Assembly (NCBI RefSeq): GCF_003334765.1
Contig: NZ_QOWT01000025.1
DNA length: 58,632 bases
DNA from: Escherichia coli
GTDB taxonomy: Bacteria > Pseudomonadota > Gammaproteobacteria > Enterobacterales > Enterobacteriaceae
Strand: one strand, 5' to 3'
Shown one piece after another: positions 55,745 to 55,971 of the stretch. The notes below the pieces were generated by a model. That model saw only the letters and a list, made by a program, of their open reading frames with translations. It was not told the origin of the DNA and did not search any database. The translations under genes were made by a program, and so were the position numbers. Each line of letters opens with the position of its first letter. The stretch's first letter is position 1.

Positions 55745-55971
55745 AAAAAAAACCAGCAGGTATAATCTGCTGGCGGGTGATTTTACACCAATACTCAGTC
55801 ACACATGATGCAGGCAAGTCAACTTTCAGAATTGCGGTCATCCCACTGCATCAGTCCTTCAAGCATGGTTAATCGTTGTGGGACGCTTAACCAACGCAAC
55901 CAGCACAACTTCGCTGTCGCGGTAAAATAGTGCTGATAAAACTGACGCATGGGGCACCTCCTTGCTTCATC
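55745..55971 (-). ncRNA. sgrS: SgrS small regulatory RNA (glucose-phosphate stress), about 227 nt, with intrinsic terminator
   Basis: Minus strand begins GATGAAGCAAGGAGGTGCCCCATGCGTCAGTT... at 55971 and ends in hairpin CCAGCAGATTATACCTGCTGG plus T8 (plus-strand A-run 55745-55752); divergent from sgrR, upstream of setA. Ends inferred from the known SgrS architecture. Confidence 0.85.
55819..55950 (-). CDS. sgrT: SgrT, 43-aa glucose-uptake inhibitor encoded within SgrS
   Basis: ATG at 55948-55950 inside SgrS encodes MRQFYQHYFTATAKLCWLRWLSVPQRLTMLEGLMQWDDRNSES, the last 43 codons of the 99-aa track ORF 55819..56118. Confidence 0.8.
   Translation of the reverse strand: MRQFYQHYFTATAKLCWLRWLSVPQRLTMLEGLMQWDDRNSES

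Follow-up and report, generated by a model that had tools for sequence, protein, structure and literature searches.

We found that positions 55745-55971 on the minus strand of the window (the whole stretch of 58,632 nucleotides of Escherichia coli DNA analyzed here) almost certainly constitute E. coli sgrS with an embedded sgrT gene, in a common allele distinct from that of K-12. SgrS/SgrT is a textbook dual-function bacterial RNA whose presence in an E. coli window is a matter of routine annotation; the locus is already known, and the non-K-12 allele has likewise been published twice. This copy has one feature of functional relevance, itself already published, namely the base at SgrS +13 (A13). 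The initial annotation described the locus correctly, and its coordinates for SgrS, the sgrT ATG and the sgrR-sgrS spacer all hold; it did not recognize that this is a non-K-12 allele in which A13 removes an inhibitory hairpin. The locus comprises three genes besides the embedded one's reading frame:

55745-55971, minus strand: SgrS sRNA, 227 nt, with +1 at 55971 (Rfam RF00534; K-12 sgrS annotation)
56039-57694, plus strand: sgrR, encoding a 551-aa transcription factor, divergent from sgrS (NF010149; ORF list)
54539-55717, minus strand: setA, encoding a sugar efflux transporter (ORF and TIGR00899)

The identity of SgrS is borne out by the comparison with Rfam that the initial annotation had proposed: the RF00534 (SgrS) covariance model matches the minus strand from 55971 to 55745 over its full length (model positions 1-232 of 232) with 230.7 bits and an E-value of 9.4e-66, far above the gathering score of 37. 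As also claimed, SgrS is divergent from sgrR, which starts at the plus-strand ATG 56039-56041 and whose product matches the NCBIfam equivalog NF010149 over residues 1-550 (1127.5 bits; cutoff 476). On the other side, the SetA protein matches TIGR00899 (602 bits; cutoff 522), and 27 nt separate the SgrS 3′ end from the setA ATG. This arrangement is identical to the annotated order of K-12 MG1655 (thiB, sroA, sgrR, sgrS with sgrT inside, setA, leuD), from which the window differs by two bases across 361 nt, just one of them within SgrS. The SgrS region occurs as a single copy, annotated sgrT/sgrR/setA, in 5400 of the 5426 complete E. coli genomes. The match to the known locus goes far beyond what chance would give, and we found no evidence against the identification.

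Some minor observations concern the same neighborhood. The sgrR-sgrS-setA junction is unmatched in 26 of the 5426 complete genomes, and three junction matches in this collection are on records labelled plasmids. A TPP riboswitch (RF00059; 66.1 bits against a threshold of 54.3) is found at 57728-57827 on the plus strand, 34 nt after the sgrR stop codon; its K-12 counterpart is the annotated sroA/thiB leader.

The 5′ part of SgrS carries the coding sequence and its ribosome-binding site:

55819-55950, minus strand: sgrT coding sequence, 43 codons plus TGA, SgrS +22..+153 (translation; Pfam PF15894)
55957-55961, minus strand: sgrT Shine-Dalgarno (SD) sequence GGAGG, SgrS +11..+15, with a 6-nt spacer before the ATG

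The frame runs from the ATG at 55950-55948 to the TGA at 55821-55819 (minus strand) and encodes MRQFYQHYFTATAKLCWLRWLSVPQRLTMLEGLMQWDDRNSES, a product that matches Pfam PF15894 over residues 3-37 (E-value 3.5e-13; 49.5 bits) and for which the identical RefSeq protein bears the name ‘glucose uptake inhibitor SgrT’. An interruption of the frame, which would speak against an embedded 43-codon sgrT, was looked for, and the frame is intact. To place it in a comparative context, we used a homologue set obtained by an exact-match scan with the SgrS seed (see below) in one genome per species, which recovered 38 loci from Escherichia, Salmonella, Citrobacter, Klebsiella, Raoultella, Atlantibacter and Superficieibacter; 36 of these display a divergent adjoining sgrR, the remaining two being cut off. 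Of 36 species, 33 have an uninterrupted SgrT-like frame, the exceptions being three Atlantibacter. In 34 sequences, a gap-free SgrT core of 34 codons (QF...LMQW) shows mean pairwise differences of 6.7, 7.6 and 11.9 at codon positions 1, 2 and 3, i.e., a third-position excess, while its two alternative frames are interrupted by stops in 30/30 and 13/30 sequences. The pattern F..YF..T..W..L..LMQW is invariant, and both frame and length are conserved across six genera. This coding signature agrees with the published Ka/Ks of 0.15 for sgrT (Huecker et al. 2017, PMC5331693).

The embedded sgrT proposed by the initial annotation is thus sustained by the intact frame, the GGAGG-N6-ATG arrangement, the PF15894 match and the cross-genus coding signature. 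One could instead hold that the sRNA is entirely non-coding and that the 43-codon frame arose by chance, given that short ORFs are common, that the ORF list has several more overlapping SgrS on both strands, and that none of the NCBIfam HMMs matched the 43-aa SgrT at E <= 0.001. We regard this as vanishingly improbable and already effectively refuted: it is opposed by the Pfam match, by the conserved frame and length in six genera with the third-position excess and the stops in alternative frames, by the consensus SD at optimal spacing to the ATG, and by the published detection and activity of SgrT.

A further AUG is present at SgrS +2..+4 (55968-55970, minus strand), inside the invariant GATGAA at the 5′ end of the RNA, a position at which no upstream SD is possible. 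The ORF that it starts in the window is 27 aa long and not in the sgrT frame; in the two Salmonella sequences and one from Citrobacter amalonaticus, this AUG shares the frame of sgrT.

The initial annotation had further placed a base-pairing region and a terminator hairpin in the 3′ part of SgrS, and we recovered both (seed, 55805-55784; terminator, 55774-55745):

55784-55805, minus strand: base-pairing seed, SgrS +167..+188, complementary to ptsG mRNA -29..-8, including its SD
55745-55774, minus strand: Rho-independent terminator and Hfq-binding module, with an 8-bp stem, a 7-nt loop and a U8 tail

Pairing was scanned by sliding a 24-nt local duplex against the -40..+15 region of K-12 ptsG, a gene absent from the window. 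The seed-ptsG duplex reaches -27.8 kcal/mol and the next-best SgrS site -15.8 kcal/mol; none of 100 shuffles was as good, and the result reproduces the published 5-8-4 pairing pattern. The seed is invariant across the homologues, for which it partly served as the search anchor. A global RNAduplex of SgrS with the ptsG leader gave a loop-ridden 200-nt duplex that was bettered by 83 of 100 shuffles and was rejected. On the opposite strand, a sigma-70-like site (TTTACA-16-CATGAT; 9/12) lies antisense to the seed at 55782-55809 (plus strand); it is probably due to chance because two such sites were found against 0.7 expected in the 500 nt scanned.

The terminator scan places the stem and loop at 55774-55752, followed by T8, and the stem is invariant in 24 homologues. 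The distance of 27 bp between sgrS and setA and the co-transcription of setA from the sgrS promoter have been described, as has a terminator read-through of ~40% in hfq mutants; the read-through products are non-functional as sRNA, Hfq binding and target regulation being properties of the terminated form (PMC9765468). The closeness of the setA ATG to the terminator (27 nt), along with this read-through and co-transcription, could suggest that the transcript is chiefly the 5′ leader of the setA mRNA, with the terminated 227-nt species being a by-product. However, 2158 E. coli genomes possess sgrS/sgrT with setA not downstream (e.g., IHE3034, where leuD is directly next), the sRNA activity resides in the terminated form rather than in the read-through RNA, and neither seed nor terminator varies between genera; hence, we consider a mere leader function very improbable.

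For the dual-function RNA, the best-supported mechanism is the established one, which in this copy would operate as follows. Under glucose-phosphate stress, SgrR, encoded divergently, would activate the weak, activator-dependent sgrS promoter via conserved DNA in the spacer. The 3′ part of SgrS (seed, hairpin and U8), bound by Hfq, would pair with the ribosome-binding region of ptsG and with other targets, turning off the synthesis of sugar transporters, while its 5′ part would act as an mRNA translated from +22 to yield the 43-residue SgrT, which would block the existing PtsG transporter. Transcripts reading through the terminator would constitute setA mRNA. In this scheme, our analysis itself shows the identity, anatomy, conservation and pairing potential of the RNA and its allele difference; the SgrR dependence, Hfq requirement, SgrT function and hairpin effect are taken from the literature. 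SgrR induction and ptsG repression are known from K-12, and SgrT translation and PtsG inhibition have been documented in Salmonella and, for K-12, with ectopic or derepressed alleles.

The single difference from K-12 within SgrS falls in the sgrT ribosome-binding site:

55959, minus strand: polymorphic base SgrS +13, A here and G in K-12, breaking the G13:C19 pair

A13 changes the K-12 sequence AAGGGGGUGCCCCAUG to AAGGAGGUGCCCCAUG and the SD from GGGGG to GGAGG. K-12 displays a hairpin formed by the inverted repeat GGGGGUGCCCC (+11..+21, with a 4-bp GGGG/CCCC stem over the SD), whereas the counterpart in the window is GGAGGUGCCCC, in which an intact GGGG/CCCC inverted repeat is not found. In folding of transcripts of 45-60 nt, the hairpin pairs 11:21-14:18 have probabilities of 0.93-0.97 for K-12 versus <=0.02 for the window allele, two of the pairs rising to as much as 0.26 in the latter at 100 nt. 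Opening +9..+27 in nascent transcripts of 45-100 nt is predicted to cost 4.5-6.0 kcal/mol for the window allele versus 7.5-10.4 kcal/mol for K-12, and the predicted anti-SD duplex is -12.7 kcal/mol for the GGAGG of the window versus -11.8 kcal/mol for the GGGGG of K-12. Mutations of C19/C21 in the K-12 hairpin raised SgrT, indicating that the hairpin inhibits sgrT translation, and the other arm could not be tested by mutation because it is the SD itself (Wadler & Vanderpool 2009); the A13 of the window is a natural change in precisely that arm, at the partner of C19. Since A13 gives a GGAGG SD and removes the hairpin, a higher SgrT output than in K-12 is to be expected; we infer that the consensus SD and the loss of the hairpin would together allow more SgrT to be translated per transcript.

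We had entertained this G13A difference as an unreported natural derepressing allele, a notion that was rejected, as it is already present in two publications (PMC2760817 and PMC5331693). In the first, just 3 of the 15 E. coli strains have the stem-loop preceding sgrT, which is absent from other Escherichia and from Shigella (Horler & Vanderpool 2009, PMC2760817), and the second explicitly lists K-12 AAGGGGGT versus EDL933 AAGGAGGT (Huecker et al. 2017, PMC5331693). Exact matches to the 61-mer of the SD region among the 5400 genomes number 3349 (~62%) for the window allele and 1421 (~26%) for that of K-12; hence, at the ribosome-binding site of sgrT, the K-12 reference allele is in the minority among complete genomes. 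A at +13 is also featured by the IHE3034-type allele and every other Escherichia species sampled, because of which A13 is probably ancestral and G13 derived. Almost all of the SgrS/SgrT mechanism was worked out in the K-12 allele, and the contribution of SgrT to the relief of sugar-phosphate stress in wild strains may have been underestimated by such work, because most natural E. coli are without the inhibitory hairpin. This point was made in 2009 and 2017, and the counts from 5400 genomes merely update it.

A second structure, common to both alleles, pairs the region of the sgrT start codon with the codons of the ELMQW motif:

55938-55953, minus strand: 5′ arm of a long-range helix, SgrS +19..+34, covering the sgrT start (RNAalifold)
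55842-55858, minus strand: 3′ arm of the long-range helix, SgrS +114..+130, in the codons of the ELMQW motif

This +19..+34/+114..+130 pairing is seen in the full-length folds of both alleles, in the Rfam consensus and in the RNAalifold consensus of 24 homologues. In the full-length fold, the opening costs converge (12.5 kcal/mol for the window versus 13.6 kcal/mol for K-12), and the AUG is unpaired with probabilities of 0.07 and 0.10 for the two alleles, respectively. Because the full-length costs converge, the translational advantage predicted for A13 may be confined to nascent transcripts. Across the 24 homologues, 97.7% of the alignment cells in the helix are paired, versus 31-61% when the register is slid, and 10 of its 13 pairs vary through single wobble-compatible changes alone; we detected 0 compensatory pairs in the helix among these homologues, the shuffle control (430/500) being uninformative. 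Structural and coding constraints are inseparable here because both arms encode the most conserved SgrT residues (MRQF and ELMQW).

The burial of the AUG in both alleles and the retention of the helix in the 24 homologues, as part of the Rfam consensus, raise the alternative that sgrT is poorly translated and of minor import in the window just as in K-12, with the long-range helix rather than the small hairpin as the dominant block. Against this, the C19/C21 mutations of the small hairpin alone sufficed to raise SgrT in K-12, so that in this strain the rate is limited by the local hairpin; the SgrS of Salmonella retains the long-range pairing, yet its SgrT is readily detectable (Wadler & Vanderpool 2009); in EDL933, a strain with the GGAGG SD, ribosome coverage of sgrS has been reported (PMC5331693); and the helix is without compensatory changes. 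We accordingly view a dominant long-range block as unlikely, albeit of appreciable probability.

The DNA between sgrS and sgrR, for which the initial annotation had proposed an alignment across enterics, shows several conserved elements:

55972-56038, either strand: sgrR-sgrS spacer, 67 nt, between SgrS +1 and the sgrR ATG (56039-56041)
55979-55984, minus strand: sgrS promoter -10 element AATAAT, SgrS -13..-8, invariant in 37 sequences from 7 genera
55994-56039, either strand: element common to the alaC promoter, SgrS -23..-68, likely SgrR-responsive, containing the sgrR SD (GGAG, plus strand)
55966-55994, plus strand: candidate sgrR promoter (a), TTCATC-17-TAATAT, 7/12 consensus, 12/12 bases invariant in 7 genera
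55980-56008, plus strand: candidate sgrR promoter (b), TTATTG-17-TAAAAT, 7/12 consensus, 8/12 bases invariant

The alignment revealed conserved blocks and a fixed length: 34 of the 37 spacers are 67 nt long, the exceptions being those of the three Atlantibacter (68 nt). The block at -70..-54 (CAT AAAAG.GGAACTCC) holds the sgrR start and SD on the other strand and is followed by AAA at -47..-45, CA.CA.TTT at -42..-34, C.ATATTA.G at -26..-16, AATAAT at -13..-8 and GATGAA at +1..+6 (37 sequences). The AATAAT -10 is accompanied by a weak -35 (TTTATT/TTTTAT at about 56007-56001), a combination that fits an activator-dependent sgrS promoter, and a relaxed sigma-70 scan puts the predicted sgrS transcription start site (TSS) at 55972, a single base away from the 5′ end of the Rfam match. 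Local alignment of the 46-bp element (56039-55994) with the K-12 alaC upstream region gives 33/46 identical positions, a score matched by 0 of 500 shuffles; the element extends into the sgrR SD and touches the sgrR start codon. Since the literature names alaC as the second gene activated by SgrR, this alignment places SgrR-responsive DNA inside the spacer, and the element likely represents it, in keeping with the SgrR site that the initial annotation had located there.

The accompanying claim that the 67-nt spacer must contain both promoters stands in part: the sgrS -10 and the alaC-shared element lie inside, but the candidates for the sgrR promoter are split. The -35 of candidate (a) is the complement of SgrS +1..+6 and thus falls outside the spacer, whereas candidate (b) is wholly within it, facing the sgrS promoter and overlapping it; a spacer holding both promoters, therefore, is plausible. 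Both candidates are weak, putative assignments from sequence: a strict promoter scan of the spacer returned no plus-strand (sgrR-direction) promoter, (a) and (b) emerging under relaxed criteria alone, and a literature search, the primary SgrR-site paper aside, found no published sgrR TSS. Were (a) the true promoter, a polymerase starting on sgrS would sterically block transcription of sgrR, on top of the autoregulation by SgrR. Taken jointly, we deem it quite unlikely that GATGAA doubles as the sgrR -35 and/or that the +19..+34/+114..+130 pairing is a selected translational gate. If such a gate existed, SgrT synthesis would be solely co-transcriptional or would follow unfolding, which would set the timing of the riboregulator and mRNA roles of SgrS. 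Such features would make the spacer and the 5′ end of SgrS a switch with closer interlocking than has so far been described.

Further observations pertain to the spacer. The second difference from K-12 is at 56022 (SgrS -51), with C in the window and in IHE3034 and T in K-12, in a stretch that is variable between genera. A sigma-54-like GG-N10-GC site (GGGAACTCCTGCGC) is found at 56020-56033 (minus strand; SgrS -62..-49) in the sgrS direction; it is without conservation support beyond Escherichia and Citrobacter because its GC element lies in a stretch, -53..-48, that is not conserved. A gSELEX study reported an RpoN/NtrC-dependent signal in the sgrR-sgrS spacer, and that nitrogen limitation induces sgrS, setA and sgrR. 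The alaC-shared element (positions 13421-13466, minus strand, of the K-12 alaC locus segment analyzed) is oriented toward alaC as it is toward sgrR and not sgrS; about 125 nt separate it from the alaC ATG, and a possible -35 region falls partly within it. By this orientation and position, the geometry of SgrR activation seems different at its two known targets.

Among characterized systems, the closest is the sgrS/sgrT of K-12 MG1655 (b4577/b4662), which shares with the window the gene order and orientation, SgrT, the seed, the terminator, the 67-nt spacer and the 27-nt gap to setA, and differs in G at +13 (hairpin GGGGGUGCCCC; SD GGGGG) and T at -51. Other E. coli lineages have been described with alleles of the SE11, 55989 and HS type, the CFT073/IHE3034 type and the O157:H7 type; in its SD region, the window is identical to SE11 and to 3349 genomes overall. 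Outside K-12-like strains, absence of the stem-loop preceding sgrT is the norm (Horler & Vanderpool 2009, PMC2760817). E. coli O157:H7 has the sgrT start changed from ATG to ATT (PMC2760817, PMC5331693), whereas the window keeps ATG. Salmonella enterica resembles the window in its dual-function RNA, identical seed, lack of an SD-occluding hairpin and conserved SgrR-adjacent spacer, but its SgrS is 239 nt long with a 40-aa SgrT and an extra hairpin between seed and terminator. Other dual-function RNAs, such as RNAIII/hld (S. aureus), SR1/SR1P (B. subtilis), AzuCR/AzuC (E. coli) and VcdRP (V. cholerae), likewise combine base-pairing regulation and the coding of a small protein in one transcript but are unrelated in sequence. 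The coding (+22..+153) and pairing (+167..+188) regions of SgrS are separate, whereas those of AzuCR overlap.

The window is also unlike the CFT073/IHE3034-type allele, which is ~93% identical, diverges in the sgrT C-terminus and the 3′ region, and is without setA. This ~93%-identical sgrS (IHE3034 locus segment, positions 1501-1900), with its divergent 3′ third and changed SgrT C-terminus, is displayed by ~40% of E. coli genomes (2158); the sequence around its terminator is altered, leuD directly follows sgrS, and setA is absent. Beyond E. coli, eight Klebsiella and Raoultella SgrS homologues keep the seed, but the 80 nt that follow it contain no T-run terminator; the sgrT of these homologues has a longer N-terminal extension, with an AGGAGGT SD directly after GATGAAGC. 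The three Atlantibacter SgrS homologues are about 175-189 nt long and without an SgrT-like ORF; their spacer is one base longer, and they retain GATGAA at +1..+6 and the promoter blocks.
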